Source of the DNA: an uncultured Candidatus Peribacteria bacterium
GTDB lineage: Bacteria; Patescibacteriota; Gracilibacteria; Absconditabacterales; Absconditicoccaceae
Reading direction: 5' to 3'
Assembly: GCA_964367985.1 (NCBI GenBank)
Contig: CAYIZS010000001.1
Location: forward strand, 1 to 55,447
Length of the DNA: 55,447 nucleotides
Shown here: positions 1 through 53,736 of the stretch, piece after piece
Position numbering within the stretch: position 1 is the stretch's first letter
Layout of the letters: each line of letters opens with the position of its first letter
The notes under the pieces: model-generated
What the model saw: only the letters and a program-made list of their open reading frames with translations
What the model was told of the DNA's origin: nothing
The model's database searches: none
Position numbers and translations under genes: made by a program

Positions 1-78
1 ATATCGCAGAGGGAAAAATAATGCCCAAAGATCAGGTAACCTATAAAGTTTGGGAGTTATAAAGTTAAGCTACTCAAT

Positions 79-1098
79 TTAAGCTACATAATAATCTGAT
101 TGATAAAAATTAGCCTGCAAAATAGGAATCCTTTTTTGATACTCTGATAAAAGTACTGGTGACTCGGGGGTTGGCTTTTTAATTCCTGCTCTTTCTCCCA
201 TATAGGGATCCAAAATATACCACTGATGATCCATTTGATTTAAAAAAGCTACTGCTCTGTGTCCATAAATTTTACCTGCAGCAGTATTTGATTGGATACT
301 AAGATCAACAAAATTTGCATCTGGAGCAAATTGAGAATAATAGGCAGGATCTTTGAGTTTTTCTCTATCTTTATTTGTAGATATAAATTTTGAAGAAATA
401 GGTGGAGATTCTACTGCATCTTTTGCATTCCCCCTAGGTACATTAATTCCAAATTTCTGAGCATTTAGAAATGCTGTCTTGGAACATAGAGTGGTGCCTG
501 TATCACTTCTTTCAAAAGGCAATGACTTGATATCTGTCATTTTGAGTGGAAGGTAGCCAATTCTTTCTGAAACTTTTAATTTAGATTCATCCCAGTCAGG
601 ATTTTCTGCTTTTTGAGCGAAAATATACTCCTCCTTATCTTTTTCTACCTGGATATTCATTTGTTCTTCTAGCTGATTATCAGTAATACTAGTGTTTTCT
701 ATAGTTAAAAACTGATTTTTTTCTCTCATTGTTTCTAGGTCTGCTAGAGTTTTGATATTTTCTAATTCTTTTAGATAAAGTTCCAAATCATCAAAAAAAT
801 TCTGAATCTCACTCTCAGGAACTCTAGAAATTTGTAATGATTTTTGCACCAACTTAATTTGAACCTTTTCTTTTAATGTACCCAAAATTCCTCCCTTATA
901 TCTACTTTTGAAGATATTGTACAATAAAGGTTCTCCCAACATATTCATTGATCCTCTTAACTGTGGGGAATATTTCTGCTGTTGCTCAGGAGTTTGTAGC
1001 GCAAAAATTTTATTTAAAAAATCCTCATAAGCTACTTCTGCCACTTCCGTTGGATCCAGTTTTTCTTGAGATTCTCTAGACTCTGAGGAATCAACATC
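79..1098 (-). CDS. hypothetical protein (339 aa) with putative papain-fold Cys-His-Asp hydrolase C-terminal domain
   Basis: Track ORF 79..1044 begins on GTG. The frame stays open to ATG 1096-1098, with TAA stop at 79-81. The C-terminal half has TLCSKTA, then YGHRAVAF, then YILDPY (Cys, His, Asp), the order seen in CHAP/NlpC-type thiol hydrolases. Motif-level call only. Confidence 0.5.
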   Translation of the reverse strand, partial: DVDSSESRESQEKLDPTEVAEVAYEDFLNKIFALQTPEQQQKYSPQLRGSMNMLGEPLLYNIFKSRYKGGILGTLKEKVQIKLVQKSLQISRVPESEIQNFFDDLELYLKELENIKTLADLETMREKNQFLTIENTSITDNQLEEQMNIQVEKDKEEYIFAQKAENPDWDESKLKVSERIGYLPLKMTDIKSLPFERSDTGTTLCSKTAFLNAQKFGINVPRGNAKDAVESPPISSKFISTNKDREKLKDPAYYSQFAPDANFVDLSIQSNTAAGKIYGHRAVAFLNQMDHQWYILDPYMGERAGIKKPTPESPVLLSEYQKRIPILQANFYQSDYYVA

Positions 1099-1202
1099 TG
1101 ATTGAAGAAGTTTCAGTCAGTCTTTGATTAAATCTGTTTTTATAAAATTTTCCATATTTTCTAACAGGTTCATACTACCAGTTTTTTTAGTGATAAAATT
1201 TA

Positions 1203-3176
1203 TTACTTTGGCCACAAAGATCTATTGTGTTCATTTCTCATACTATGCAAATAAGGAATATAATGAGTTTCTATATTTTGATATAATAAAGGATATTTTA
1301 TTTTTAAAGTAGATTCTTTTACTATTTGATATCCATGAAGGTCTGTTCGATTTGTATTTCGTTCCTTTGTATTTATATAAAGTCAAGGATGTTTAAGAGT
1401 TGTTAAATTTCATCTATAGACAAAAGGAGTTTTGTTTTTTCATCTTCATGCATACTCAGACTTTATTTTGTTCGTTAAATTAGCTACTCTCAATCATTCT
1501 TCAACATCAAAACTCAATCACTCTAATCATTCTATTGTGATTTTATTATTTTCATATCTCAATACTGTTGGTCACATATTTCTTTTATAAGATTTAGCAT
1601 AATATTTGTTTGGGTCTTTTGGATCTTGATCTACTTGTAGAAATCTTTCATTTCCTCGTTTATCATAATCACTCTTTACTTCCGTTCCTTCAAGTTCATC
1701 AAGAAGTTTATTTACATATGGTTGTAGAGGATGTTTGTTTGGGTCTTCACGAATCTGATCTCATTGAGTTAATCAAGGTATCCTATTTAAACGAGCTACA
1801 AACATTTCCTTGTTATGAGATTTGTTCAGTGTTGGAGCAGTTTTAGAAACAGTATCTGAAGTATCTAACAAATGCCCTCCTCAAATAGCTCCTAGCCCCA
1901 AAGTTGCTCCCACAGATCATAATGCAGGTCATCAATAGATAAATCACAAAATAGTTGTTAGTGCCATTACTCATCCTCCAGCTATTTTACCCATAGGAAT
2001 TCATTGTGCAGAAAGAAATTCTTTATTTTCTCAATCTGCCAACTCTACTGCTATATCTCCTCATAATCTAGTTGTATTAAATGGGGTATCATTTCTACAT
2101 TTCCCTCTAAAGTTTACTTCACAAAAATTTATAATGTTAGCTGCATGTAAAAGTTCTTTATAATCTTTAAATCTAACTCATTCCATACCCTCTACAGTTC
2201 TATTTTTGATATTAATATTGATTGAAGCTCCATAAGTTTTTAAACTAATAGTATCTTCATTGAGCTGTTCATAGCTAGCATTAGGATTTATTTTAAACGT
2301 TTCTTCCATTATAGATCACGAAATATCTGCTTTAAAGTTTGTGAAAGCATCATCTAGCCCTACTTCAGGCTTATTAATTTTTTCATCTAACCAATTCCCT
2401 ATCAATGGGACTTTATGCACATGATCTTTAAAAGCATAACTAAGTCCTGCACCGACTCATGCTAATCATAGTCATCACATCACTCGTCCCCAATTTCTTT
2501 GTCGCCAATTTTTCTTTTCTCCCTCATTATGTATCACAATTGAAGGTTGAGTTGTTGAGGAATTATTTTGCTGATTAGGATTATTTTTTTGCTCTTTAGC
2601 TAACCTTTTTCTTTCCTTTCTCGCTTTCCATTTTTCTCTGAGAGATTTAATTCCTTTATAAGCTAAAATCCCTAAACCAACTCCCGTCAACCCAAAACCT
2701 GCAGCACGAAGTGAATTTTTTCCTGTCTCTGTCTTCCATTTTTCACCATCTCGAACATCTGTCCATTGATCTTTAACAAAACCTCCAGCTGAAGAAAAAG
2801 CTGCTTTAGTCTTTCACCAAAATCCTTCTGGTTCTGATTCTGTTGTAGTTTTTGAGTTTGTTGTAGTTTTTGAGTTATTACTCTCTTCTATAGTATTTTG
2901 CACCTCTTGATCTAGAGAAGTCAAACTCGTTGTAGTAGTATCTAAGGTAGCAACTTCTTTGGCTATTTTTTCTAATTCTTCACGTTCCTGAGCATCTAGA
3001 GATGCCTCTTGAAGTTTTAACTGAATATCAGCATCTAATTTTTTCTTTGCTGCTTCTATTTCAGACTTTTTTGTTTCCTTTTCCGAATCAACATTTAAAA
3101 CCTTTAGCCCATCTAACTCTAAACGAATGGCATCTGTTTGCTGTTTAAATTGTTCTATAGTATTTGGTTGAGACAT
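1203..3176 (-). CDS. hypothetical membrane protein (657 aa): coiled-coil N-terminus, Thr/Asn-rich linker, Gly-zipper TM segments
   Basis: Track fragments 2814..3206 and 2475..2690 share one frame. A codon-by-codon walk from ATG 3174-3176 to TAA 1203-1205 meets no TAA/TAG but about 26 TGA. Many TGA lie in Gly runs such as GGLGLAGVGAGL (2442-2477) and GGPALGSVGATLGLGAIGGG (1875-1934). A 2-kb open frame in DNA this AT-rich is strong coding evidence. Confidence 0.7.
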
Positions 3177-3340
3177 AACTAAATTTATAACAAATAAAAT
3201 ACTCACCTATAGTATATCCAAAAACAAGAAAAAAAGCAAAAAATTGAACCTTTTTTATACAAAAAAATCCCAGCCTTCTCAAATCAAAGAGATAAAAATA
3301 GACTAGGATTTTTAAATAGCTTTAAACAAAGTAATTATTT

Positions 3341-3544
3341 CTACTCACTCAAGGTTTTATCTTTCGGTTTAAAAATAAAATACACAATCAAAAGTGGGAA
3401 AATCAGAATCTTTTTTAGATTTGGTTTAGTCCAAAAAAGTGCAGGAAAATTTTTGAAAAGATTTTCCATCAGTTGAGAAAACTTATTATTTTCTGGATCC
3501 TGATCAAAAGGATATCTGCCAAAATCTTTGATAAATTCCCACAT
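3341..3544 (-). CDS. small hypothetical membrane protein (67 aa)
   Basis: ATG-to-TAG ORF in the track with a hydrophobic C-terminal stretch (ILIFPLLIVYFIF). It lies on the same strand between tig and the 657-aa gene. Confidence 0.35.
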   Translation of the reverse strand: MWEFIKDFGRYPFDQDPENNKFSQLMENLFKNFPALFWTKPNLKKILIFPLLIVYFIFKPKDKTLSE

Positions 3545-3573
3545 CGTTTGATATACATAAGCAAAATTTGAGA

Positions 3574-4824
3574 CTATTTTTCGTTAGTGCTATCTTTTTT
3601 CGCAGGAGCTTTCTTTTCGGCTTTGGAACTATCAACCAACTTATCATAAAGCTGTTTTTCTACTGCCAAATTTTCTGCATTATCACTTCGATCAATCGTT
3701 ACATCAAGCAGTTCTGCTACTTTATTGAGGATAAAGAATTTTTCTAGACTTTCATTTGCAGCTGTTTTGATATTTTCTGTAAAAGCAGTAGCTTGATCTC
3801 CTAGTTGAGTCATATATTCTTGGACCTTTTCTGCAGATCCAAATCTTTCTTCGAGGTTTTTCATTCTGACTTTAAACTCTTCTTGGATCATTGTTTGAGG
3901 GATTTTTACCTCAATTCCTGCTTTTCTCACTGCTCAAATATAATGTTCTATCGCATGGATCAGTTCGTGTTCATATTTTTGCTTTTCAATCTCAGTTTTT
4001 ACATAAGTTTCCAATTCTGAATAAGTTTTTACTTCTGCATCTTTCCCAAAAAGTTTGGCAATCATCTCATCATTTAGCTCTGGAAGGATCACTTTTTTGA
4101 TATCTTGAATGGTTACTTTGAGGGTTTTGGCATCAGCATGTTTGCTTTGCAAGGTGGCAGGAAGTTTTTTACTTTCATAAGCAAGTTCAATCACTTCTCA
4201 GTTCTTTTTTCCTTCAAAGGTTTTTTTCCAGAAAGGATCTTCCAAAAATTCTGGTTCACCTAAATAAGCGGATCCTTTTTCGAGACTTTCATCCTTTTGA
4301 TCTAAAAATTCTAAACCAAGTTTTGCTATTGTATCTAAAGCATCAATCGCCTCAGCATCTTGGTAATCAGCATAATTTTTTCTAATATTGAGCAGAGAAT
4401 CTTCTAACTCCTTTTTTTCTACTTTGACTGCAATCGGAGCAATTTTTTCTGATTTCCATTTTTCTCCCGCGATAGTCACTTCAGGATAGTAATCTAGAAA
4501 AAAAGTCACCTTGGTAATCTCCCCTGCTTCTTCGGTTTTGAAATTGTAAGGTTCTCAGATAAATTTGAGTTCTGGATTTTCTCCTAAAATTTCTTGGAGT
4601 CCATGGTTTACGAGATCCTCCACAATAGCCATCTCCACATATTTGGGCTCGACCTTTTGTTCTACGATATGGAGAGGTACATTTCCTGGTCTAAATCCAG
4701 GGATTTTCATATCTTCTGCAAAATGTTGGAGCACATGTTCTCTACCATGGGCTTTTTCAGCAGGTCAAAATTCTAGAGTAATTTCATAGTTTGACTGTTC
4801 AGCCAAAGTAAGCGTTTTTTTCAT
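3574..4824 (-). CDS. tig: trigger factor (416 aa)
   Basis: Track fragments 3574..3930, 3934..4194 and 4198..4509, plus unlisted 4510..4824, form one frame joined by TGA at 3934, 4198, 4555 and 4765. The N-terminus MKKTLTLAEQ...KIPGFRPGNVP carries the trigger-factor GFRPGxxP signature. TAG stop at 3574-3576. Confidence 0.85.
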
Positions 4825-4973
4825 TATAAAAAATAAAAGATAAAATCTTGGCTCGAGGATAGCAATATTGACAATAAATTCAAGCGAGATTTGAAAAAAA
4901 ATCTGATTTTAGATTTTTTGGGAGTAAAGCTCGTGCTAGGATTTGGGTGAATAGAACAATTTAGAGCTTTTTT

Positions 4974-5001
4974 TTGCAAAATAAAAAATTCTCATTATAC
5001 T
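4974..5001 (+). promoter_or_regulatory. candidate sigma-70 promoter for the deaminase gene
   Basis: TTGCAA (4974-4979), 16-nt spacer, TATACT (4996-5001), ~40 nt upstream of ATG 5042. Such matches are common in AT-rich DNA. Confidence 0.35.
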
Positions 5002-5041
5002 TACATCAAGAAAAACTTTTATTTAGCATAAATTCTCAAAC

Positions 5042-5560
5042 ATGCCACATAGTAACGGAACGATTAAAGATCATGGTCATCTCAAAGCAGCAGAAATTCA
5101 TGATGATGATTATTTTATGGATATTTGTCGTGTAGTGGGAGAAAAAGGAAGCTGTGATCGTGGAAGAAGTGGCTGTGTAATTGCAAAGGATGGACATATC
5201 ATTTCTACCGGATATGTAGGTGCTCCCAAAGGGAGTCCTACTTGTGATGAGATTGGGCATCAACTACGAACAGTTACTAAAGATAGCGGGGAAACTACCC
5301 ATCATTGTATGAGAAATAGTTGTGCGGAGCTCAATGCAATTGCTAGTGCTTCTCGCCAAGGGGTAAATTTGGAAGGTGCAACACTTTATACCAAAATGAC
5401 TCCTTGCTATATCAGACATTGTGTGCATTTGATTGTAAGTTGTGGAATTTCTAAAGTCGTTTGTGAGAGAAGATACCAAGATACTGAGCTTAGTGAGCAA
5501 GTTTTGAAAAATGCAGGGATAGAGCTCGTCTATCTAGAAAATGGAATTGAAAAATATTAA
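5042..5560 (+). CDS. dCMP (deoxycytidylate) deaminase, ComEB-like, with atypical zinc-ligand motifs
   Basis: 172-aa ORF collinear with ComEB-type deaminases (DDYFM...GSCDRGRSGCVI...GYVG...HHCMRNS-CAELNAI...TPCYIRHC). CAE replaces the usual HAE, and PCx4C replaces PCxxC. Confidence 0.75.
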   Translation: MPHSNGTIKDHGHLKAAEIHDDDYFMDICRVVGEKGSCDRGRSGCVIAKDGHIISTGYVGAPKGSPTCDEIGHQLRTVTKDSGETTHHCMRNSCAELNAIASASRQGVNLEGATLYTKMTPCYIRHCVHLIVSCGISKVVCERRYQDTELSEQVLKNAGIELVYLENGIEKY

Positions 5561-5662
5561 ACTATAGTTTTTAAAAAATAATTTCAAAAAAACTGATCTC
5601 TCTCAAAGGTCAGCTTTTTATTTTTAGAATCATTTATTGGTAAATAAATTATCAGAAAAATT

Positions 5663-7927
5663 CTAGATAAAAATATCTCTAGGTTTTGCTCCATCCTGTG
5701 GACCAATAACTCCCCTTTCTTCCAAAATATCCATAATCCTAGCAGCTCTAGCAAATCCTACATTGAGCTTTCTCTGGAGTAAGGTTGCAGAAGCTTTTCT
5801 CGTTTCCAAAATCACTTGAATTGCTTGATTGACCAAAGCTTCATCATCTCCAGCATCTCCAGATCCTCCCATTCTAGCTGTTTCTAGTTTGGATTCCAAC
5901 GCAGCAATAATCTCTGGATGATAGATATCTTCTTCGCTCAATCCTTCCATATATTTATTTCTCAAATGTGCAACTACACGATCAATTTCATCAGTTGCGA
6001 TGAAAGGAGCTTGCATTCTGATCGGAAATTTGGTACTCGGATCCATATATAATAAATCTCCTTTCCCTACCAAATCCTCTGCCCCTTTACGACCTAAAAT
6101 TGTCCTACTATCAATCTCAGATACTACAGAAAAAGCAATCCTAGTAGGAATATTTGCTTTGATCAGTCCGGTAATCACATTTACAGACGGTCTTTGGGTG
6201 GCGAGAATGAGGTGGATTCCAATTGCTCTAGCTTTAGCAGCAAGACGATTGATGCTATTTTCTACTTCTTTTCTATTTGCAGCACTAGAGAGCATCATAT
6301 CTGCCATCTCATCAATCACAAATACAATACGATACATTTTCTCTGCAGGATTTTTTGCATTATATTCATCAATATTTTTGACTCTCTCATTTTTGAGTAA
6401 AGTATATCTGCTCTCCATCTCATCTACCGTCCATTGGAGCAATTTAATTGCTTTGCCACTCTCATAGACAATAGGAGCTAAAAGATAAGGCAATCCTGAA
6501 TACATAGCTAGTTCAACCTGCTTGGGATCTACCATGAGAAATTTAAGCTCAGAAGGAGTATTTTGATACATCAAAGAAACGATAAAATCATTTACCCCAA
6601 CAGATTTTCCACTTCCTGTAGAACCAGCAATCAACAAATGTGGCATCTTTTCTAATGTTTTAGTTTGAATTGATCCATCAATCCCAATTCCTACAGAAAG
6701 ATTGGTGCTAGATTCTTCCATCGCTTTAGAAAATTGGGAAGTATTGAGGACATCTGGAAGTTTAACTAAGTTTGGACGAGGATTGGGGATTTGTATCCCT
6801 ACTAAATCCGTACCAGGAATCGGAGCAATAATCCTGAGCGATTTTGACTTGAGAGAAAGTTTGATATCATTGGTTAGATTTTCTATCGCAGAGATCCTGA
6901 TTCCTTCTTCTGGTTGGATTTTGATCTGCACAATAGAAGGACCAATATCAAATCCTTTGATCTGAATCGGGACCCCAAACTCTGCCAATTTTGCTTGTAG
7001 AGATTCTGCCTTTTCAATCAAAAATTTTTCATCAATCGTATGTGGATCAGAATTTGGACCCAATAAAGAAGAAGGGAAAGTCGGTTTATCTCCAGCAAAC
7101 TGAATCAGCGGTTTGGGCTTTTTCTCCTCAACCTTTGCATGTACTTTAGCTTTGAAAATTTCTTTGATCAAAGAACCAGAAGCAGATGAAGATCCCGTCT
7201 GGACACTAGTTTTGCTCGGAGCTATATTTTTGACCATCTCTGCCACCGATAGATCGGGTGAAGAAATCGTAATCGTAGGTCTGGATTTTTCTTTTTGTTT
7301 TTTCTGTGGAGCTTTGGCAGTAGATTGGACATTGATCTTGGGAAGTTTTGGTAGACGAACATTGAAAATATAGAGGACATAAGCAACTGAAATCACCAAT
7401 AACAAAACTACCACAATTTTGATTGCCAAAATTGACTCAGCCCCAAAAGCATACTGCAATACTCGCAGTAAAGGTCGAGAAAAATAACCTCCAGCTTTGG
7501 GATACAGTTCTACTGTCTTTTCTAAAATACGAAAATTGAGGATCGCAGAGATCAGCATCATAATTACAAAAAATCGCTTGATCAGAGTTTTCATCAAATA
7601 TCCCTTGATGAGGATAAGGGTTCCAATAATAATCAATAAAAGAAAAAAGGCACTTAGTCCCATCTCGTTTCCAAATGCCACACTAGCGTTGGAATTCAAA
7701 AAATTAAAAATCGGTGAATCCTGAGCTAATGATTTTGAAAAAAAATAGAGCGCCCCAAGGACGATCATCCCTACTCCGATATGATGTTGATTGATCGCAA
7801 CTTTACGAGTCTTTCTGTATCTCCTTTTTCTTGCCAAAATATTTGAGTAATAAATAAAATCCCTATAGTTGAGGTTAGGGATTCTAGCTACACTTTCAAG
7901 GAGAAAGTATATAAATAATCTGACCAA
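5663..7927 (-). CDS. ftsK: DNA translocase FtsK/SpoIIIE
   Basis: 754-aa uninterrupted ORF with N-terminal TM helices, Walker A GSTGSGKS, Walker B VFVIDEMAD and a C-terminal winged-helix gamma domain (LLQRKLNVGFARAARIMDILEERGVIG). The start is uncertain: TTG at 7927, alternative TTG at 7837. No in-frame TGA at all. Confidence 0.9.
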   Translation of the reverse strand: MVRLFIYFLLESVARIPNLNYRDFIYYSNILARKRRYRKTRKVAINQHHIGVGMIVLGALYFFSKSLAQDSPIFNFLNSNASVAFGNEMGLSAFFLLLIIIGTLILIKGYLMKTLIKRFFVIMMLISAILNFRILEKTVELYPKAGGYFSRPLLRVLQYAFGAESILAIKIVVVLLLVISVAYVLYIFNVRLPKLPKINVQSTAKAPQKKQKEKSRPTITISSPDLSVAEMVKNIAPSKTSVQTGSSSASGSLIKEIFKAKVHAKVEEKKPKPLIQFAGDKPTFPSSLLGPNSDPHTIDEKFLIEKAESLQAKLAEFGVPIQIKGFDIGPSIVQIKIQPEEGIRISAIENLTNDIKLSLKSKSLRIIAPIPGTDLVGIQIPNPRPNLVKLPDVLNTSQFSKAMEESSTNLSVGIGIDGSIQTKTLEKMPHLLIAGSTGSGKSVGVNDFIVSLMYQNTPSELKFLMVDPKQVELAMYSGLPYLLAPIVYESGKAIKLLQWTVDEMESRYTLLKNERVKNIDEYNAKNPAEKMYRIVFVIDEMADMMLSSAANRKEVENSINRLAAKARAIGIHLILATQRPSVNVITGLIKANIPTRIAFSVVSEIDSRTILGRKGAEDLVGKGDLLYMDPSTKFPIRMQAPFIATDEIDRVVAHLRNKYMEGLSEEDIYHPEIIAALESKLETARMGGSGDAGDDEALVNQAIQVILETRKASATLLQRKLNVGFARAARIMDILEERGVIGPQDGAKPRDIFI

Positions 7928-8064
7928 GGTAAATACATTAAAAATCGTAAAACTAAAAAATAAAAATCAAAAGTATTCGCAAATTATAGATACCTTAAAT
8001 TCCCTTGATTTTATTAGTTCAATCACTATTGATATAGTAATATTTTTTAGATTTAGATCATCTG

Positions 8065-8379
8065 ATGAATAAGGCTTGTGTAACCTGACTCGATAATATA
8101 AAGGAATTCAGCACACTTCTCCAGTTAATTGCAGATCCTCTGAGACTCAAAATCCTTTGCTTTTTGAATCAGATTCCAGATAATAGAGGTTGTCATGTTA
8201 CTACTTTGACAGAAAAATTCAATAAAGCTCCCAACCTTGTCTCTCATCATCTTAGTATGCTCAAGAGAGAAAACTTAGTCATCTGCACTAAAGAAGGAAC
8301 TAGTAGAAGATATCAACTTAATCTAGAAAAATATCAGATCCTCAAAGATGGGATTAATACCGTCTTTGATGTTAAATAA
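8065..8379 (+). CDS. ArsR/SmtB-family HTH transcriptional regulator (104 aa)
   Basis: Track ORF 8164..8379 is N-terminally truncated. The frame is open from ATG 8065 through TGA 8086-8088, giving LLQLIADPLRLKILCFL...CHVTTLTEKFNKAPNLVSHHLSMLKRENLV, the ArsR-type wHTH pattern. Confidence 0.75.
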
Positions 8380-8432
8380 GCAAAACCAGAAGAACAAATG
8401 TGAAAAAGTTTTTATCTTTAATAAAATATATT

Positions 8433-8792
8433 ATGGCAATTATCAACATTACTCAAAAAGAAGAGTTAGACAAACTACTAGCAGAATTTGGAGGAGTAGT
8501 AATTTTAGATTTTTATGCAGACTGGTGTGGTCCTTGTAAAATGCTTGCTCCAATCTTTACAGAACTTGCTTCTGAATATGATCCATCTGAAGTAAAATTT
8601 GTAAAAATTGACACCGAACAAGCTCAAGAGCTTTCTATGATGTTTGGTATTAGTTCTATCCCTACAGTAGTATATGGAGTAAATCACCAACTTGTAGAAG
8701 GATTCCTTGGACTCAATCAAAAAGAATTCTATCAAGAGAAAATCAAAGAATATCTAGGAAAGGTAGGACAAGAATCAACTCCTACTGAATAA
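8433..8792 (+). CDS. trxA: thioredoxin
   Basis: WCGPC active site (DFYADWCGPCKMLAP), with Trp encoded by TGG. ATG 8433 preferred; the track's GTG 8400 is an alternative start. Confidence 0.85.
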   Translation: MAIINITQKEELDKLLAEFGGVVILDFYADWCGPCKMLAPIFTELASEYDPSEVKFVKIDTEQAQELSMMFGISSIPTVVYGVNHQLVEGFLGLNQKEFYQEKIKEYLGKVGQESTPTE

Positions 8793-8820
8793 CACTCAAA
8801 AATAAAACAATAAAAAAAAG

Positions 8821-8852
8821 ATCAAGGGAAATCAGATTCCTTGATTTTTTTG
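8821..8852 (+). terminator. rho-independent terminator after trxA
   Basis: ATCAAGG...CCTTGAT stem (8821-8845) followed by a T-run. Confidence 0.5.
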
Positions 8853-9905: not shown

Positions 9906-9906
9906 A

Positions 9907-44957: not shown

Positions 44958-45157
44958 TCTAGAAAAAAATTTAAATCAAACTAAAACAAAAGCTCTTATT
45001 AGTATAATCAAAATCCCCTTTTTTGACAAAAATATCTCTAATAATGAGTGAAAAAACCTTGCATTTTATCAGATTTATTGTTTTTTATAAAAATGGATTT
45101 GCAAACTCTAGATAATTGATTACACTACAAGTCATTTTATTGTTCTCCTTTTAAAGT

Positions 45158-45637
45158 ATGCAAGAGATCCTCATCTGCTCTCTAGATGAAGTAAATATCC
45201 CTCAAAAATATAGTGCTGAAGCTGTAGGGCGAGATCTCAAGAATGCAGAATCCTGCAATATCGCAGCAGGAGAGATCAAACTGATTTCATCAGGAGTAAA
45301 AATATTCCTTCCACTTGGGCGATCTGCTCGCATTGTTGCTAGAAGTGGTTTGCCGATAAAAACAGGATTATTACTAGCCAATAGTATTGGGATCATTGAT
45401 AGTGACTATAGAGGAGAATATCTGATGCAACTCTACAATCCTAGCAAAGAACAAATAGAAATTCCAGCAGGGACCAGGCTTTGTCAGATTTTTTTTGAAC
45501 CCAACTGGGCACAAATCCAATATCCTATCAGCTTTCCTCAGATCAAAACCTTGGTAGATAAGGAAATGTATCAAAATTTTGAGCAGCACTATCCTAGTCA
45601 GAGAGGAAGTTGAGGATTTGGATCTAGCTGAGATTAG
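45158..45637 (+). CDS. dut: dUTP diphosphatase (159 aa)
   Basis: Motifs RSGL, IGIIDSDYRGE and RLCQI. The C-terminal motif 5 is restored only under table 25: RGS[G]GFGSS[G]D (TGA at 45611 and 45629). TAG at 45635-45637. Confidence 0.85.
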
Positions 45638-45668
45638 CTAACATTTTATCAATAATATCTTAACAATC

Positions 45669-46433
45669 ATGAACGAACGAATTAAATCTCCAAAAAGTAT
45701 TGCAAATATCAGAGAATCTGGGAAATATCTGACAGAACTTTTGCATTTTTTACAAAATTCTACTAAAGCTGGGATGGATTTGATCAGCATCGAAGCATTA
45801 GCTGAAGATCGAATCAATAAACGCCATCTCAAAGGAGCTTTTAAAGAATATAACGGATTTCCTGCAAATCTTTGTCTCTCAGTAAATGATTGTGTGGTAC
45901 ACGGAATCCCAGACCGCACTATCCTCAAAAACGGTGATCTTCTCAAAATTGATGCTGGACTGATTTATCAGGGAGGATTTTCTGATGCGGCGATCAGTCT
46001 TATCGTGGGAAATGAAAGCCATAATCCAGCAGGACAAGCACTCATTGAAAGCACCAAAGCTTCCCTAGATCGTGGAGTAGAAAGCATCAAAACTGGAGGA
46101 ACTGCTTACGAATTTGCAAAAGCCGTTTATGATCAGGTCAAGGGAGATGGTTTTGAAATTATTAGAACTCTGAGTGGGCATGGAGTTGGAAATGCAGTCC
46201 ATGAAGAACCTCATATTCACAACTATCCCCATGCTCCCATGAAAAAAATCAAATGGTTACCGTGAATGGTTGTAGCACTTGAGCCAATCACAGCGATCAA
46301 GTCTGATGATGTGGTCTATAGAGAACACAACGACTGGAATCTTTACTGTAGAAAAGTAGATCTTGGTGCTCAATGGGAATATACGGTCCTCATCTGAGAA
46401 CAGGGTCCAGAAATCTTGGCAGGAATACAATAA
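45669..46433 (+). CDS. map: methionine aminopeptidase type I (254 aa)
   Basis: Track ORF 45669..46265 continues through TGA at 46263 (LP[G]MVVALEP) and 46395 to TAA 46431-46433. Metal-ligand context present: D..KID, GHGVG, ALEP, EYTV. Confidence 0.85.
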
Positions 46434-46494
46434 TACCAAGCTATAACTAGCTGTTGTAAATAACCATTCAACTGGAACGACAAAGAGATAGCAA

Positions 46495-48192
46495 TTAATA
46501 ACCCAAAAGTTTCATTTTCTGAGGAGCTGTTGGGACAAAAAGATCAAACCACCTTGGAGCAGATACTACAAGAAAATCACCTCCATGATTTAAAGTAGCA
46601 ATACTACGATCTTTGAGATAAAATTGATAATTTCTAGCAAACTGTTCTTGAAAGTTTTCTTGTTCATTAGTAGGGATTTTTAAGGATTTAATCCCATTGA
46701 AAACAAAATCACCTGCTCAATTGATCAGCTTGAGAGGGAAATAAAACTGCGTTTTGTCTGGAGAAAAGAAACTCAGATCTACAAACTCTGCTAAACTATA
46801 AGCAAGCTGTCCAGGATAATAGGCAGTATTTTTTATTGTTTTTTCTAAAGGTTTTTTTGCACAGGCATTTTCAGCACAAGTAGCCAAGTTTGGAAGTGCT
46901 ATCAAGACTTTTTTGAAATAAAGACGGTTATTCTTTTCCCCAATAGTCAAAAAAGTTAAATTATCACTATCCGAAGTTAATGGATACCAAAGTTGCTCTT
47001 CTGGATCATAAGAGACAGTACCTAATGCAAGCATATTTCCTCCATGATTAGTTCGCAAAGAAATACGATCTTCTTGGACTAGATAAAGCCGCTTTTTATC
47101 AAAAAAATACTTTCATTCTCCTGGATCTTGTAAATTATTGAACAAGGCAAACTGTTCATCTATTTTGAGTAATTTGCTAGTCCCCGTATACACTAAAGCA
47201 AGGAGTTTTTGAGAAGTTAAATTTTGAGCTTCATCAGGAGACAAGAGAGTTCCTAAAGTCTGATAAGATTTCATATATTTAATGACAGGTTCTAGTACAA
47301 ACTGATCCAAAACCATGATTTTTTCTTGCTCTTGATCTAAATGATAGAATCCATACATAAACTTGTCCTCAAAAATCAGTTTTTCAACATTTCCAAAAAA
47401 ACTTGCTACTTGTGATCCTTGATTGAGAGCCTTGAGGTCTATGGTTATCACAGAGATAAAACTCGCACCTAGACTATCAAGATTTTGATCAGGAAACTTT
47501 ACCATTCTACAGTCAATTTCTTGTTCTTTTGCTGTGATTTTGAGAAAATCTCTATCTTCCAAAAAATGAGGGATCAATTCATTTACTCTTTGCTTCCCAG
47601 CTTTATATTCCTCTATTTCTCAAGGAGAATAAGTTCTTTGGGTAGCAAAATAAAATTTATTTTGGATAATCTTGCTGTCCAATAAAGCTCACTGAATCTG
47701 AAAATATTTGACAGGAATAATTTTTTTATCATCTATACGATAGATCATCATCAAAGTTTTATCTTCATAATGGGCAGTAATAATAAGTAAATCTTCATAA
47801 CGATCTGTCTGAATCAGAGAAAATTTGGGAGAAAATCTGATCATCCCAAAAATTTCTGGAGTAGTGAGATTCATTACCGGATTGAGACTAGAATGAGGAC
47901 TTTTGACCAAAAGAATAGATCTTGCGGCTTTTTGATGGAGAGGCAAAAAATCTGTAGTCATAAAAGAATGAGCTTCTGAAGAAACCACTCTAGCCAAAGA
48001 ATCAGATTTTTTTGAGCTAAGAGAAGTCTCTAAATTATGTAATGGAAGGTTTTCTAAGATTTTTCCAATTTGATTACAAGAACTGAAACTTTCCCAAGAA
48101 TCTTCTTGATATGAATTATTTGCTGCAAGAACTGAAGCATTCAACAAAAAAAATACGAAGATAAAGACTAAGTTTAACAGATTTCTCAACAT
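46495..48192 (-). CDS. hypothetical secreted protein (565 aa)
   Basis: Track fragments 46717..47058, 47113..47577 and 47689..48192 are in one frame joined by TGA. The gaps were walked without TAA/TAG. Signal peptide LVFIFVFFLLNASVLAANN. TAA at 46495-46497. Confidence 0.6.
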
Positions 48193-48466
48193 GCTATAAC
48201 ATATAAATTGGGTAAAATTTGACTAAAATCAAAGCAAAGTATTTCTCCCATTGAGGGAATAAAACTATTATAGTCTTTTTTTTATTTTTTACAAATTTTT
48301 GGACTTTAAGTTTTGTAAACAGACTTAACATATTTCATAAAACAATAACATCAGAAAAAAATCCAAGAATTAGCCCAGAAGTCAACAAAAACTTGAAAAG
48401 AGTCGACAGATCAGTATCTTCTGTCTAGATCCATCTAACTATGGGAGTTTTTATTTTTACAATAAG

Positions 48467-48859
48467 ATGCTTAGATTGTTCAAAGACTTTGCTCGATCTA
48501 TTATTATCAATGCAGTTATCCTGTGGGTACTAGACTATTATCAGTTTGGGATTTCCATCCAACTAGCATCCTCAGAAACGATACAAATCGTCACCAGTTT
48601 TTTGGTTTTAGGGTTTATTTTTTGGGTTTTCAATTTCTTGATCAAAAAGATTTTCAAAGTTGTGACTTTTCCACTTAGGATTCTAACTCTGGGATTGATC
48701 AGTGTTTTGATCAATGTTGGGATTCTCTATGCCTTCGCTCGATTTGTCAATCATAACTTCCCTGAGTTTAATATCCAGCTTGTAGGATTTTATCAAACGC
48801 TAATCCTCTCAGTAACTATTTCTCTAGCATATTATTTACTTTCTAAAATACTCAAATAA
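48467..48859 (+). CDS. DUF360 / phage-holin-4-like membrane protein
   Basis: 130-aa, 4-TM ORF. IINAVILWVLDYY...FPLRILTLGLISVLINVGILYAF matches the family's LTLGLF.L.iNa core. Confidence 0.6.
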   Translation: MLRLFKDFARSIIINAVILWVLDYYQFGISIQLASSETIQIVTSFLVLGFIFWVFNFLIKKIFKVVTFPLRILTLGLISVLINVGILYAFARFVNHNFPEFNIQLVGFYQTLILSVTISLAYYLLSKILK

Positions 48860-49119
48860 TGAGACCAGCTTCACTGTCCTATCTCATCGGACTAGTTATC
48901 TTTGGATTACTCGGAGCGATTCCTTTTTTCCAAAATCTCGGTGGAGATACTACTGCCCTCCTTCGAGGAGCAAAAATTTCTGTCACCAAACTTTACCTCT
49001 ACACCAGCTTTATGGGGATGGTCCAAGGAGCATTTCTTGTCCTCTTTCTCAAATCTTTCCTCCTCAATCTCAAAAGAACTAAACTAGAAAAATTTGATCT
49101 TTGAAATTATGAAGATTAA
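48859..49119 (+). CDS. small hypothetical membrane protein (86 aa)
   Basis: ATG overlaps the previous stop (TAATG). Two TM helices. The track stop at 49102 is TGA, so the frame runs to TAA 49117-49119. Confidence 0.45.
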
Positions 49120-49179
49120 TAAAACAAACCCATAAAAATCTGATTTTTCTTTTATTTTAACTATAAAAATTCTACCATC

Positions 49180-49800
49180 ATGTCAAAAGATTATATCATC
49201 AGCAGAGATAAAGCGGCCAGTGTCCTAAATGTTTCAACTAGAACGATCGATAGATATATCAAAGCAGGTAAACTATCCTATAGGAAAGTAGCAAACAAAG
49301 TCCTCCTTTCTAAAGCTGAAATCCAAGAACTTCAGCAAGAATATTCTGTCCTCCATGAAAAAATTTCTACCGAATTTCTCAAAGAAGAAAACAATGATAC
49401 ACTGACCAACAATGCCCCAAATTTCAATGGGAATAATCAAAACTTGCTAGTGAGAGCTGATATCGAAAAAGCTATCGACGAAAAAATCGAAAAATTTTTC
49501 CTGGTATTCAAAGAAAAGGATAAAATGCTCGAAGAAAAAAATACCATCATCTTTGCACTCCAGCAGAGAATCGCAGAACTAGAAGTCAAAATCCAAAATA
49601 TGATCGCACTCCCCGACTATAGCAAAGAAAAACAAGAAGCATTATTGGAAAAAAAGAAACTCGAAGAAAGAATCTCTAGTCTCAAAGAAACCGTGAGAAA
49701 TGAAAAAATCAAAAATTTTATCCTCATCCTTTTTTCCCTGGTTTTTATCGGGATTGCACTATTTCTCCTCGTAAAATACAACATCATCGCTCAAAAATAG
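49180..49800 (+). CDS. membrane-anchored HTH (excisionase/MerR-like HTH_17) protein with coiled coil
   Basis: 206-aa ORF. N-terminal ISRDKAASVLNVSTRTIDRYIKAGKLSYRKV, central heptads, C-terminal TM FILILFSLVFIGIALFLLV. Confidence 0.55.
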   Translation: MSKDYIISRDKAASVLNVSTRTIDRYIKAGKLSYRKVANKVLLSKAEIQELQQEYSVLHEKISTEFLKEENNDTLTNNAPNFNGNNQNLLVRADIEKAIDEKIEKFFLVFKEKDKMLEEKNTIIFALQQRIAELEVKIQNMIALPDYSKEKQEALLEKKKLEERISSLKETVRNEKIKNFILILFSLVFIGIALFLLVKYNIIAQK

Positions 49801-49866
49801 ACAAGTTTTCAATTTCTGAGCAAAGAGACTCCTCCCGCTATTTAGATCTACTATAACACAATAATT

Positions 49867-51312
49867 ATGAGACATAAATTCTGATTTTTCTTTTTGAGTA
49901 TTTTTTTATTATTAGGGATTTCCAGTACTCAAGCATACACCTTTGGTCTCAAATCTAGCGACAATAGTATAGAAAATATCTTGGCAATCGAAAAGGAATA
50001 CCGACTCTATCTCCCTCTAGTAGGATTTATCTATGATCCTCGAGATGGACAGGACGTAACTGCTGAGCTAGGGAAAATAGCTACCCAGCTAGGAAATCAA
50101 AGAATCTATCATCTCACCCTCTCCCCTGACAAGTACACAGCTGCAGAAGTCGCATCAGGAGCATTTGATCAGCAATATTTGAGCTTTTTTAGAGCGATCA
50201 AAGACTATAATCTCAAGGTCATTTTTAGAACGATGCATGAGATGAATGGAGGACGATATCCTCGATCCTCTGACCCAGAAAATTTCAAACAAGCCCGGAT
50301 CCATGTCTGGAATCTTGCTAGATCTCTCGGACTTGATCAGCATCAGATCCTTTTTGATTTTTCACTCAATCACTGGGATATGCCTACACTAGATCCCAGA
50401 CCCAATCAACAATCCTCTCTCATCACTTGTAAAGATCCTGCTACTTTACAAAAAGATCTTGAAAAACTAGAGAAAAAATCGACCCTCACTCCAGCAGAAA
50501 AAAAGCTTTTGGAAGAACAAAAAAAAGCGATAAAAAAACTGGAAAATTGTTTCCGTTTTGAAGATTATTATCCTGGAGATGAATATGTAGATCTGATAGG
50601 AGTCAGTTTTTATAACTGGGGAAAAGCAACTAGCCATAGACAGTGGATCGCTCCGGATAAAATTCTCAATGATCCAGACTGGAATACGCTAGATAGGATG
50701 AAAAAACTCGGGAAACCACTCTTTGTAGACGAAGTAGGGACAAGTGCTATTTACTACAGTGGAAACTATCTCCATGAAAAATCTCAGCAAGTTTTCCGCA
50801 CAGAAAAGGAGAGAAAAAACCAATGGTTGAGCCAGCTTGGAAAATTTTTATCACAAGAGCATTTTGTAGGAGCACTCTATTTTAATGTAGACTATACCCA
50901 TGGACTAAACTATGCACTCCTGGGAGAAGCAGACTGGGCAATTATCAATCTCCAGACACAAATATTTTATGAAGGATTTTGGGAACTCTATCAGGCTTCA
51001 AAAGCTGATTTTACCAGTCTTTTGAAACTCTTTGGGCTCGAAGAACTGCAGCTACAAGGAAAAAGCTATCTAGTGGCACAAGGGCTCAGTAGTCTCATCC
51101 AACAAATAGATACTCTCGTAAGTACAAAATTCCCAGAAGCAGAAAAAAAACTCAATCTCTATCAACAACTGGAGAAAAATTCAGGATTTCCTCTCACCTT
51201 TAGAAAAGCTCTCGGAGAACTCAAAGAGATCCTAGCTTATCAAATTTTGGTAGCGAAGGAGAACGTTTTTGAGAGTAGCGAAGAAATGCTAGAAACAGGG
51301 ATTGAAAAATAG
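49867..51312 (+). CDS. secreted glycoside hydrolase, GH26-like (481 aa)
   Basis: ATG 49867 with TGA 49882 inside the signal peptide (MRHKF[G]FFFLSIFLLLGISS). FRTMHEMNGG (GH26 acid/base context), YYPGDEYVDLIGVSFY, LFVDEVG (nucleophile context). Confidence 0.5.
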
Positions 51313-51401
51313 AGGGGAAAAAACAAGCTTGAAAAATACTCCTACATAAGTATAAAAAAAACTGAATATCATCTTTTATCTCATTTATTTGATACACTAC
51401 C

Positions 51402-51956
51402 ATGGTAAAAATCGATGCAGCAGAAGTAAAAAAAGGAACTGTTTTAGAAATGAATGGTCAGCTTTTTAGAGTATTAGACCTTTCTTTTATGCAGATGCAA
51501 CAAAGACAAGGAAGTTATACCTACAAGGTAAGGAATATCAACACTGGAGGGGTACAAAATATTACCGTAAAATCTGGAACTACACTAGATCAGGCAGATA
51601 TCCAGACCAATAATGCAGTCTACCTCTACAATTCTGGAGAGAGCTACTCTTTTATGGAAAATGATACGGGAGAAATCCACGATATTGACAAAGCAGAAAT
51701 CTCTGATATCACCGGATACCTCAAAGATAATCTCGATGTTTATATCCAAATCTACCAAGGGAATGTGATCAATGTCATCCTGCCTTCTACTATTAGTTAT
51801 ACTATTACCGATACCGTACCAGGAATCAAAGGCAATAGAGCCCAATCTGGAACCAAACCAGCTACTCTAGAAACCGGAATGGAAATCCAAGTACCTCTCC
51901 ACAAAGAAATCTGAGATATTGTAACAATCAATACCCTTACTAGTGGGGTGAGTTAG
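51402..51956 (+). CDS. efp: elongation factor P (184 aa) with a non-canonical modification loop
   Basis: Track ORF 51402..51914 continues through TGA 51912 (EI[G]DIVTINT..., the usual GD.I.VDT end) to TAG 51954-51956. Residues 31-35 read QMQQR where E. coli has KPGKG. Confidence 0.8.
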
Positions 51957-51981
51957 ATCTTTTTTTATTCACTTGCTTTAG

Positions 51982-52635
51982 ATGCTGACTCCCAAACTCC
52001 TCGCAAATATCAGTATTATCATGGCTATCATTGTGCTGATCCTCAGTATCGGAGTCATTATTTTTCCCAAAACATTTAGAGAATTTGATCTCAAACTCGT
52101 AGCCAACAATACCAACTCTGCATTCAAAGATCGTATCGCTTTCTGGATTGATCGTAGCATCAGCTGGAAACCAATCACGCTCCTCTATCTGGTATGGGGG
52201 GTCTTTTTGGTTATATTGGACAAAATTACTGCATTTGGAGTGATAGGGATCAGTATCCTCTCTGGATCTTTAGGATTCTGGGCAATCAAGCGTATTACCC
52301 AAAGGAAAAGACCTGCAGATGCTAGAGTCCATTACACAGACTATAGTTTTCCTAGTGGCCATACTACTACAGGAGTTATTATTTTATTGAGTTTTGCTTA
52401 TTTTCTCACACTCCTCATCGATCAAACTCTTTGGGCATGGATTTTTTATAGTTTAGCTCTCCTGGGAGGAGCTGTGGTCGGACGGAGTAGGCGATACCTC
52501 AAAGCGCATCGAGTCAGTGATGTAATAACTGCACGATTATTAGGAATCGGATTTTTTATCTTTTCTTATCTCCTGATCCTCTATTTTGGAGATGCGATCC
52601 TCGAGAGTGTAATGCAAGTATTTTTTAGTCTCTAA
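51982..52635 (+). CDS. PAP2-family phosphatase (undecaprenyl-diphosphatase/PgpB-like)
   Basis: 217-aa multi-TM ORF with the tripartite PAP2 motif KRITQRKRP ... PSGH ... SRRYLKAHRVSD. Confidence 0.8.
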   Translation: MLTPKLLANISIIMAIIVLILSIGVIIFPKTFREFDLKLVANNTNSAFKDRIAFWIDRSISWKPITLLYLVWGVFLVILDKITAFGVIGISILSGSLGFWAIKRITQRKRPADARVHYTDYSFPSGHTTTGVIILLSFAYFLTLLIDQTLWAWIFYSLALLGGAVVGRSRRYLKAHRVSDVITARLLGIGFFIFSYLLILYFGDAILESVMQVFFSL

Positions 52636-52647
52636 TAGGGTAAAAAA

Positions 52648-53736
52648 ATCACAAAAATCCGAGATACGATCATCATTTGAGCTGGAGCTAGTGGACTATT
52701 CTTTGCAGATCAATTAAAAGATCACAAATCCGTAGCCATTTTGGAAGCTAACGATGCTCCTGGAAAAAAACTCTTACTTTCTGGAGGAGGAAGATGTAAT
52801 TTTTCTAATGCAAAAATCGAGTTGGCTCAAGATTATCTCTGTGATGATCTAGATTTTTTGGAACAGACTTTTGCTCAATTTGATACGGCAGATTTTTTGG
52901 ATTATCTCAAGAGCTATGATATTGACTACAAGATAGAAGAGAACGGAAGACTCCTTCTAGCAAGTAATAAATCAAAGCAGTTATTGGAGCATTTCTTACA
53001 GCAGAGGGAAGATAAACAGATCCCAATCTACTACAATCATCCAGTAGAAAAAATAGAAAAATCTGGAGACTATCGACTCCTCCAAACTAATCAAGGGGAG
53101 TTTCTGAGCAAAAAAATCGTCATTGCGAGTGGTGGGAAAAGTTTTCCCGGGATCGGAGGATCAGATTTTGTCATTCGTTTTGCAAATCACTATCATATCA
53201 GCTATCAAAAACCCTACCCAGCACTTTGCGGGATCCAAACCCAGCCAAATCTAGGAGAAATAAGTGGAAGTAGTGTTATCGCTACCCTGCAACTCTGGGA
53301 TCAGGAACAGATAATTCATCAAGAGAAAGGGGCTGTGCTCTTTACCCATCGAGGGATTTCTGGACCCAGCGCTTTCAATCTCTCCCTCTGGATCAACTAC
53401 TATTATCCTCAGAATTTTGAACAACTTAGGATTCAACTCCATATCCCCGCTGATCAGGTCAGTAAAAGATTACTTTCTCATCTCGGAAAAAAGAAAAAAT
53501 CTGATCTCATCCTGGACTTCAATATCGATCAAATCAGAGGATTGGATCAAGCCAAAATTATGGCTGGAGGAATCTTGCTCCAAGAAGTCTATCCCAATTT
53601 TGAACTCAAAAAATTGCCCAATATATTTCTCATCTGAGAGGCCCTCAATGTCAACGGAAAAAGTGGCGGATTCAATCTCCAATGGTGTCGAAGCAGTGCT
53701 GCTGTCTGTGCAAGTGCGATGGAGGGAAGATGCTAA
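52648..53736 (+). CDS. HI0933/BaiN-like FAD-dependent flavoprotein; start codon unresolved
   Basis: Track ORF 52741..53637 is truncated at both ends. The frame is open from 52639 (after TAA TAG at 52633-52638) and reads ...ITKIRDTIII[G]AGASGLFF (TGA at 52678 is the first Gly of GxGxxG). The C-terminus runs through TGA 53635 ([G]EALNVNGKSGGFNLQW) to TAA 53734-53736. There is no ATG/GTG/TTG between 52639 and the Rossmann motif; only ATC at 52648 and 52657. Confidence 0.7.

Follow-up and report, generated by a model that had tools for sequence, protein, structure and literature searches.

The subject of this work is the genetic code of a 55,447-bp stretch of DNA, contig CAYIZS010000001.1 of GenBank assembly GCA_964367985.1, which is referred to as the window and was analysed over positions 1..55447. 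The whole contig measures 57,150 bp, and its sequence also turns up in run ERR5322706 and assembly ERZ25038560. Three of its codons, UGA, CGA, and CGG, align with amino acids other than those expected from the standard table. Read with TAA and TAG as the sole stops, the window (GC ~35%) yields 51 genes with 16,237 codons at a coding density of 87.9%, and the gene content is an ordinary bacterial housekeeping set (Table 1). Pfam annotation, complemented by inspection of the translation for ribosomal protein S15, assigns genes for translation and protein folding (trigger factor, lysyl- and aspartyl-tRNA synthetases (LysRS and AspRS), ribosomal proteins S1 and S15, elongation factor P (EF-P), and methionine aminopeptidase (MetAP)), for the envelope and cell division (FtsK, MurB, and a MraY-type glycosyltransferase of family 4), and for transcription and RNA modification (GreA, sigma-70, an HrcA-like protein, and RlmE). 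Other enzymes are a thioredoxin, RNase H1, a Nudix hydrolase, dUTPase, a PAP2 phosphatase, an HI0933-like flavoprotein, a HAD hydrolase, and a PD-(D/E)XK nuclease. The membrane proteins include a stomatin and a Kef-type antiporter, and several large lineage-specific proteins are also present. The tRNA genes in the window are limited to tRNA-Cys(GCA), tRNA(UCG), and tRNA-Arg(CCU), and neither rRNA genes nor a release-factor gene were found within it.

Table 1. Coordinates of the window features discussed in the text, with in-frame TGA, CGA, and CGG codons (nucleotide positions unless given as residues).
Feature	Coordinates	Strand	Codons and remarks
Lineage-specific membrane protein	1203..3176	-	26 TGAs, 44% of Gly codons (26/59), in Gly-rich transmembrane stretches
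FtsK	5663..7768	-	0 TGA among 42 Gly codons; CGA 7576, 7477, 7465; Pfam domains
LysRS	11037..12686	-	CGA 11630 (residue 353), CGA 11762 (residue 309); TGA residue 361
tRNA-Cys(GCA)	13415..13488	-	
DUF4215 (Cys-rich repeat) and PKD surface protein	15318..17885	-	23 TGAs, 6 CGAs; Pfam domains
Membrane-anchored EEP-family protein	18678..19745	+	TGA 19443 (GDFN); CGA 19464
tRNA(UCG), predicted CGA/CGG decoder	19801..19871	-	Rfam alignment 61.6 bits, all positions aligned
MraY-type glycosyltransferase family 4	22307..23401	+	3 TGAs; Pfam
1,563-residue protein	24415..29106	-	22 TGAs, 4 CGAs
Ribosomal protein S1	30696..31877	-	Four TGAs; CGA 31583 (residue 99), CGA 31046 (residue 278)
Ribosomal protein S15	31939..32190	-	TGA 31951; identified by eye from translation
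tRNA-Arg(CCU)	32269..32340	-	D-loop AAUGGAUA (A20), A73; canonical Arg identity
RNase H1 with hybrid-binding domain	32458..33144	-	TGA 33025 and residue 139; CGA residues 30, 213; CGG residue 34; Pfam Cauli_VI, RNase_H
AspRS	33201..35009	+	TGA 33222, 34752, 34785
Nudix hydrolase	37012..37509	+	TGA 37198 (last G of Nudix box); CGA 37120
RlmE/FtsJ methyltransferase	38557..39168	+	TGA 38770 and residue 175
Primary sigma-70 factor	39342..40688	+	TGA 40110 and residue 385; CGA residue 9; Pfam Sigma70 r1_2, r2, r3, r4
MurB	40898..41965	-	Four TGAs (residues 24, 60, 137, 263); one CGA (residue 268)
Stomatin/SPFH protein	42434..43183	+	CGA 42875 (residue 148)
Kef-type cation/H+ antiporter	43227..44957	-	7 TGAs, 3 CGAs
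dUTPase	45158..45637	+	TGA 45611, 45629 (motif 5); CGA 45230, 45320
MetAP	45669..46433	+	TGA 46263 (PGM motif), 46395; CGA residues 4, 48
GH26-like protein	49867..51312	+	CGA 50254, 50263; CGG 50296; motif NGGWYPWSS...AW
EF-P	51402..51956	+	TGA 51912
PAP2 phosphatase	51982..52635	+	No TGA; CGG 52483; CGA 52492, 52510, 52534
HI0933-like flavoprotein	52648..53736	+	TGA 52678 (GxGxxG), 53635; CGA 52660, 53074, 53350, 53689; no canonical start
Lipoprotein-like gene	53992..54627	-	
Big_2/fn3 gene	54704..55447	-	

Reading frame and the meaning of UGA

In-frame TGA occurs 161 times and is spread over 37 of the 51 genes (99 per 10^4 codons). No in-frame TAA or TAG is present inside any of the 51 genes, which end in TAA (33) or TAG (18) and never in TGA; translation thus terminates at UAA and UAG alone. 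When these genes are read in their two other frames, TGA, TAG, and TAA are about equally common (309, 247, and 204 per 10^4, respectively). The asymmetry therefore stems from the reading frame and not from composition, and the absence of in-frame TAA and TAG beside 161 TGAs is not a matter of chance. The initial annotation of this DNA had listed more than 25 genes as interrupted by TGA only, a number that the 37 genes found here exceed, and all 16 of the TGA coordinates that it cited are indeed in-frame TGA codons (TCA on the plus strand for minus-strand genes). Its warning that a standard-code annotation would be badly fragmented is likewise borne out: table 11 splits the genes into 4.2 pieces on average, and in 23 genes the longest piece covers less than 70% of the gene length. 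Homology, on the other hand, runs through the TGA codons. The AspRS match to solved structures in the PDB is uninterrupted from residue 1 to 598 of 602 (E=2.6e-144), across three TGAs, and the Pfam HI0933_like match extends from residue 8 to 358 straight through the TGAs of that gene. The C-termini also agree with those of homologues, with 602 residues for AspRS compared with 580–599, and 184 residues for EF-P compared with 184–215.

The residue encoded by TGA was addressed with alignments in which the codon was masked as X and nine proteins were compared with solved structures. Gly is the majority residue in 12 of the 18 alignable TGA columns and Trp in none; the six remaining columns hold D/S, Q, V/K, S, A, and T. 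All three TGA columns in AspRS are Gly in 4/4 structures, and the relatives have either TGA or GGA, GGT, or GGG at these positions. Three of the four columns in MurB are Gly, the fourth being variable (D/S). For EF-P, the single column is Gly in 3/3 structures, and the codon is GGA in the related locus L015. Both columns of the HI0933-like flavoprotein, including the first Gly in GxGxxG, are Gly in 4/4 structures. The one alignable column in dUTPase (TGA152) is Gly, and both dUTPase TGAs correspond to GGA in locus L002. MetAP contributes one Gly column out of two, namely TGA199 in the PGM motif, which is Gly in 3/3 structures. Agreement is poorer for S1, where one of four columns (TGA251) is Gly and the other three are Q, V/K, and S at variable positions; TGA353, which is Ser in E. 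coli S1, is GGA in L009. The single LysRS column (TGA361) is Ala in 4/4 structures.

A second line of evidence comes from related loci, which were fetched by means of AspRS and of a PAP2 homologue and compared codon by codon in protein-guided alignments. In five recoded relatives, the codons opposite window TGA are GGN (12), TGA (10), Ser (1), and Ala (1), and TGG is never found opposite TGA. Conversely, of 178 TGA codons in the relatives, 116 face a codon for Gly in the window. Individual genes show the same exchange. In the 1,563-residue protein, two aligned TGAs are GGT in the 95%-identical locus L001 and the others are TGA, and TGA139 of RNase H1 is GGA in L001. Of the family 4 glycosyltransferase TGAs, two stay TGA in both L001 and L004, and that at residue 94 is TGA in L004 and lies outside the L001 alignment. 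Comparison of paralogous repeats within the DUF4215/PKD surface protein, which requires no database, places 'SS-TGA-DGCS' opposite 'EN-GGN-DGCS'. Sequence motifs and domain matches are consistent with this assignment: the Nudix box GX5EX7REUXEEXGU fits, as read from the sequence, with TGA as its G, the Pfam FtsJ match (residues 17–197) runs across both TGAs in RlmE, and the Na_H_Exchanger match (residues 15–376) spans six TGAs in the Kef-type antiporter. The proposal in the initial annotation that UGA is a sense codon for Gly and not for Trp thus agrees both with the structure-based columns and with the TGA/GGN exchange between relatives. We regard UGA as Gly as secure and UGA as Trp as excluded.

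CGA, CGG, and the tRNA with anticodon UCG

The window contains 70 CGA (43 per 10^4) and five CGG codons (3 per 10^4). Among the Arg codons AGA dominates with 204 per 10^4, followed by AGG (47), CGT (43), and CGC (9). The same codon alignments with the five recoded relatives show that window CGA stands opposite TGG (14), CGA (4), Tyr (3), Val (1), and Ala (1), and never opposite Arg. Window CGG is opposite TGG in 2/2 codons, and CGG codons in L001 and L002 in turn stand opposite window TGG. As controls, window CGT is opposite Arg in 39/52 and AGA in 73/94 cases. In the standard-code loci L005–L007, the loci's own CGA codons are found opposite window Arg or Lys. A tally of all 62 observed codons identifies TGA, CGA, and CGG as the only ones that depart from the standard table. 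The share of Gly for TGA is 0.65, compared with 0.67 for GGA, and the share of Trp for CGA is 0.61, compared with 0.66 for TGG; for CGG it is 2/2. Both CGA and CGG therefore align as Trp codons, with a thin sample of five codons in the latter case, and the requirement in table 25 that all 61 sense codons be standard does not hold for the window.

At the level of single proteins, several of these codons (jointly CGR) fall on conserved Trp residues. For S1, E. coli has Trp at each of the two CGA columns, and the PDB alignments overall give W and W/F; residue 278 belongs to a 'DPW' motif and is TGG in L009. LysRS residue 353 aligns with W, W, F, and F. In solved stomatins, the residue opposite the stomatin CGA is the Trp of 'DAWGIKV', and CGA351 in the HI0933-like flavoprotein aligns with Trp in 3/4 structures (W, W, L, W; 'QWAWSS'). 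In PAP2, the first three CGR columns, including the CGG at residue 168, are TGG in both L009 and L015. The FtsK CGA codons are opposite TGG, TGG, and TAY in L003 and L004. Less pronounced are the dUTPase columns, with Y/M/M and E/F/W, and MetAP CGA48, with I/F/Y in the structures and TGG in L002. CGG34 in RNase H1 is CGA in L001. The PKD repeats of the surface protein provide an internal comparison, since 'SLD-CGA-TGA-DGS' in one repeat is opposite 'SID-TGG-TGA-DGS' in another.

The GH26-like protein was compared with 150 representatives from an exhaustive homologue search. In homologues with less than 43% identity and no recoding signature, the three CGR columns are W, W/Y, and W/Y/F, the last being residue 144 with the CGG codon, and never R. 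Arg appears in these columns only in close relatives with 43–67% identity, where it stems from mistranslation of the relatives' own CGR codons. Public catalogues have translated the clade with table 4 and standard CGR (P0004–P0006 and P0007–P0156), and many of their entries are short fragments. In the catalogue proteins of this family, R is found 206 times compared with 325 W at window TGG columns, which is the mirror image of the same CGR reassignment, and W is found 255 times compared with 976 G at Gly columns.

CGA and CGG amount to 75 of the 214 Trp-type codons (35%), a share that is even across genes (heterogeneity p=0.38). The initial annotation held that conserved Trp is encoded by TGG; this is incomplete in view of the CGR share. 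It had also recommended a profile comparison across translation tables, which we carried out with Pfam on 12 domains in 10 proteins, using table 4, table 25, and table 25 with CGR read as Trp. The summed scores are 1028.5, 1072.7, and 1100.1 bits, respectively. The expected advantage of table 25 over table 4 is thus present, but the modified table 25 scores higher still. For the individual domains, W at CGR is better than R in six, equal in four, and worse in two. The scores rise in the same order for the HI0933-like domain (184.2, 196.1, and 202.2), for Exo_endo_phos in the EEP-family protein (45.7, 51.7, and 53.9 bits), and for NUDIX, with 41.3 (TGA as W), 44.5 (G, with R at CGA), and 49.4 (G, with W). 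PAP2 increases from 48.0 bits with R to 56.7 with W, and dUTPase from 75.5 to 79.7 bits.

A tRNA that may account for this decoding is encoded on the same contig. The tRNA(UCG) reads, in the Rfam alignment, GGGGGGU-UG-GUGU-AAUGGUA-ACAC-A-UCGGU-CUUCGGA-ACCGA-CACU-GUGGG-UUCGAUC-CCCGC-ACUCCCC-G. Its D-loop, AAUGGUA, has U20 and lacks the Arg determinant A20, and the tRNA further has G73, a discriminator typical of tRNA-Trp, together with a G1:C72 pair and G37. The tRNA-Arg(CCU) of the window, with A20 and A73, serves as an internal contrast. As a control, a metagenome scan was made for tRNAs with the same anticodon arm as the window tRNA(UCG). Among the matches listed, A20 is present in 107/107 parseable tRNA(UCG) genes, which have GC-type acceptor stems; none of these matches resembles the window tRNA(UCG), and only canonical A20-bearing tRNA-Arg(UCG) was seen. 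It follows that the missing A20 is a peculiarity of the window tRNA. A BLAST comparison with E. coli genomes gave no match, and the 213 tRNAs of related loci used for nearest-neighbour typing include no tRNA-Trp. With what we take to be the sequence of B. subtilis tRNA-Trp, the ungapped identity is 70%, which is a lead and not a test. A provisional rule states that a tRNA(UCG) that accepts Trp has G73 and lacks A20 (PMC8629427). The window tRNA has both properties, and by the published rule it would provisionally be classified as Trp-type and not Arg-type.

Code model and rival codes

We consider it highly probable that the window derives from a low-GC (35%) bacterium in the UGA-recoded Patescibacteria clade (Absconditabacteria/SR1 type), where UGA encodes Gly, CGA and CGG encode Trp, and UAA and UAG are the only stops. 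The recoded SR1/Gracilibacteria-type lineage suggested in the initial annotation is supported, but its choice of table 25 as the code is not, because 70 CGA and 5 CGG behave as Trp and the tRNA(UCG) has G73 and no A20. In such a cell, tRNA(UCG) would be charged by tryptophanyl-tRNA synthetase (TrpRS) and would read CGA, and CGG by wobble. Arg would be left to AGA/AGG and CGU/CGC, for which tRNA-Arg(CCU) is present in the window and the corresponding UCU tRNA is not. UGA would be decoded by a tRNA-Gly(UCA) whose gene would lie in another part of the genome, and release factor 2 (RF2) has presumably disappeared, in line with what is described for members of the clade.

A number of observations weigh against this model. 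MetAP TGA243 is Thr in 3/3 structures. CGA238 in the HI0933-like flavoprotein (53350–53352, 'TH-x-GISGP') is Arg in 3/4 structures; this residue is TGG in L015, CGA in L009, and Phe in B. cereus. The clade evidently has Trp at this site, and the codon may go back to an Arg CGA in an ancestor and have changed its meaning to Trp later. LysRS CGA309 is A, A, A, and T in the PDB, an uninformative column, and one CGA in L001 stands opposite a window AGA. For CGG the columns are few, with five codons of which two are informative against relatives or distant homologues. In the Kef-type antiporter, W scores below R by 1.7 bits for Na_H_Exchanger and 3.0 bits for TrkA_N. The tRNA(UCG) lacks the weak Trp element A/G1:U72, having G1:C72 instead, and position 37 is G and not A; its aminoacylation with Trp is predicted from the sequence. 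Genes for tRNA-Gly(UCA), tRNA-Trp(CCA), TrpRS, and RF2 (prfB) are absent from the 55,447-nt window, and tRNA scans of 12 related loci gave no tRNA(UCA). Finally, the closest metagenome-assembled genome (MAG; 94% AspRS identity) bears the NCBI label 'Candidatus Peribacteria', and CGA could be decoded ambiguously, as both Arg and Trp. Compared with the totals, the discordant columns are few, and they leave room for some decoding ambiguity.

Such ambiguity is the essence of the first alternative, in which CGA and CGG are in transition and are either read as both Arg and Trp or poorly decoded. The CGA at the conserved Arg site in the HI0933-like protein, the single AGA-to-CGA difference from a 94–98% identical relative, and the retention of G37 and G1:C72 in tRNA(UCG) are what would be expected in this case, and the Codetta authors hold ambiguity to be possible short of experiments (PMC8629427). 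Against it stand the large and even CGR share among Trp-type codons, and the presence in the window of only one CGR-reading tRNA, which is not Arg-type. Because CGR falls on invariant Trp residues in the essential S1 and LysRS, ambiguity would moreover be costly. We find a transitional state unlikely.

The second alternative is plain NCBI table 25, where UGA is Gly and all other codons are standard, with CGA and CGG as Arg. Its UGA assignment is fully supported, and current tools as well as GTDB treat the clade as table 25. The conserved Arg in the HI0933-like proteins and the slightly higher scores with R in Na_H_Exchanger and TrkA_N also speak for it. By contrast, window CGA is opposite Arg in 0/25 cases in the five recoded relatives, compared with ~75% for CGT and AGA. 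The CGR codons fall on invariant Trp in S1, stomatin, the HI0933-like protein, LysRS, and the GH26-like protein, W adds 27 bits to the summed Pfam scores, and the tRNA(UCG) is without A20, which together make this alternative very improbable.

Table 4, the Mycoplasma-type code with UGA as Trp, agrees with the W that database proteins of relatives (P0004–P0006) have where the window has Gly. The agreement ends there: Trp or TGG is found in 0/18 PDB columns and in 0/31 codons opposite window TGA when recoded and standard-code loci are both counted, TGA occupies invariant Gly positions (GxGxxG, GDFN, PSGH), and the Pfam total is 44 bits lower with W, so that the probability of table 4 is close to nil. 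The standard code, with the in-frame TGAs explained by pseudogenes, sequencing or assembly errors, selenocysteine, or programmed read-through, has nothing in its favour beyond the prevalence of table 11 among bacteria and can be dismissed, given 161 TGAs in 37 genes with no in-frame TAA or TAG and no gene ending in TGA, TGA positions that recur in assemblies made independently and in relatives (35 shared with L001, 10 with those more distant), and a TGA frequency of ~1% of codons, far above any selenoprotein usage.

The preferred model, with UGA as Gly and CGA and CGG as Trp, has a direct counterpart in the code predicted by Codetta for Absconditabacteria, where CGA and CGG are read as Trp via tRNA(UCG) (Shulgina & Eddy 2021, eLife, PMC8629427). 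The same three reassignments are found in the window, and the GC content of 0.35 is within the reported range of 0.26–0.38 (PMC8629427). The combination of low GC, depressed CGN usage with very rare CGG, and AGA as the main Arg codon is also shared, as is a tRNA(UCG) with G73 and no A20. The two differ in that the window tRNA lacks the weak Trp element noted above, and in CGA usage, which the paper gives as below 37 per 10^4 in Pfam-aligned columns for all species and which is 43 per 10^4 of all codons in the window, a rough comparison as the denominators differ. The triple code thus matches one computational prediction (2021, PMC8629427), and the window is an independent codon-level support for it with the cognate tRNA on the same contig. 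Arg-to-Trp is the only sense-codon reassignment reported in the Candidate Phyla Radiation, and it comes from that single computational screen (PMC8629427). The code is neither among the NCBI tables nor among the classifiers of the gTranslate preprint.

Other known codes are less similar. NCBI table 25, the code of Candidate Division SR1 and of Gracilibacteria (Campbell et al. 2013, Rinke et al. 2013), shares UGA as Gly and UAA/UAG as the only stops with the window, but keeps CGA and CGG as Arg. Table 4, used by Mycoplasmatales and some endosymbionts, shares a sense UGA in a small low-GC genome, but the residue is Trp where it is Gly in the window. In Anaerococcus and RFN20 Bacilli, CGG was assigned to Trp in the same 2021 screen (PMC8629427). 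As in the window, this is an Arg-to-Trp change at low GC with a Trp-like tRNA, but it involves CGG only, via tRNA(CCG), after loss of tRNA(UCG), whereas the tRNA(UCG) in the window would serve both CGA and CGG.

The assignment of UGA to Gly in SR1 and Gracilibacteria has been known since 2013 and is no news in itself. The value of the window is practical and confirmatory, as no standard table translates it correctly. Table 11 breaks up 37 of the 51 genes, table 4 writes Trp where 161 codons stand for Gly, and table 25 writes Arg at 75 positions of Trp, some of them in catalytic cores or invariant. These sites offer concrete tests for proteomics.

Lineage, uneven TGA use, and the 3' end of the window

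GTDB places the organisms with UGA as Gly in class JAEDAM01 (Absconditabacterales, BD1-5), and NCBI labels around this clade are often inconsistent (2026 gTranslate preprint). Apart from the closest MAG, the near MAGs carry the label 'uncultured bacterium' and have 67–69% AspRS identity, and all of the nearest use in-frame TGA; the next AspRS matches, at 42–45% identity, have no in-frame TGA. The NCBI label 'Candidatus Peribacteria' is attached both to the UGA-recoded L001 (CAYTFB010000003.1) and to L005, which is without in-frame TGA, and is therefore no predictor of the genetic code here. The CGA-as-Trp trait points to the Absconditabacteria side, a placement drawn from the code only.

In contrast to the even use of CGR, the TGA share of Gly codons varies strongly between genes (chi-square p=5e-10). 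The 18 housekeeping genes stand at 7.8% and the remaining genes at 20.2% (Fisher p=3e-8), with FtsK (0/42) and the membrane protein at 1203–3176 (26/59) as the extremes. No Pfam family was found for the latter, and an exact-sequence look-up of the FtsK product returned no record. Where the window has GGN in FtsK, the orthologues in L003 and L004 show TGA in dozens of positions (36 of 48 in L003; 48 of 72 in L004, across FtsK and three other genes). In the sister genomes L003, L004, and L009, TGA makes up 50–59% of Gly codons. One might speculate, although we hold it to be rather doubtful, that the lineage represents a later stage of Arg-to-Trp capture of CGA than any described genome, with the conserved Arg in the HI0933-like protein now being Trp, and with UGA as Gly still under selection. 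If so, the clade would constitute a natural time series in which two codon reassignments proceed at different speeds in the same genomes.

The initial annotation confined the recoding to positions 1–53736. Position 53736 is the stop of the last TGA-containing gene, and the limit is correct to that extent, but the remaining 1.7 kb belong to the same genome. The lipoprotein-like and Big_2/fn3 genes located there differ from all other parts of the window in that their 460 codons include neither TGA nor CGA or CGG, and a recent horizontal acquisition of the two genes is possible. A chimeric 3' end (53.74–55.45 kb) was considered and rejected, since the junction at ~53.8 kb recurs in the independent assembly L016. 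Between two convergent genes at this junction, a GC-rich nested palindrome is found at 53785–53890 (CCCCCCUCCC...GGGAGGGGG and a second hairpin), with a folding energy of z = -6.6 on the plus strand and -5.8 on the minus strand. A search of this palindrome and spacer against Rfam gave no family at threshold and only sub-threshold chance matches.

The pair of PAP2 and HI0933-like genes (51982–53736) is syntenic in distant recoded relatives at ~43–45% identity, and is followed downstream by an integrase in L009 and by VanY/GrpE in L015. The study of one distant relative (SRP286056) concerns wastewater. The 1,563-residue protein (24415–29106, minus strand) has an extended tract of repeated Pro-Ile-Asp (PID) tripeptides around residues 330–375. 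In the 5' regions of the HAD hydrolase gene (20002–20060) and the HI0933-like gene (52639–52680), no ATG, GTG, or TTG is present between the upstream in-frame stop and the first conserved motif. Both contain AT[TC]-ACA-AAA there, and in view of the missing canonical start, AUU or AUC start codons are suggested for the two genes.

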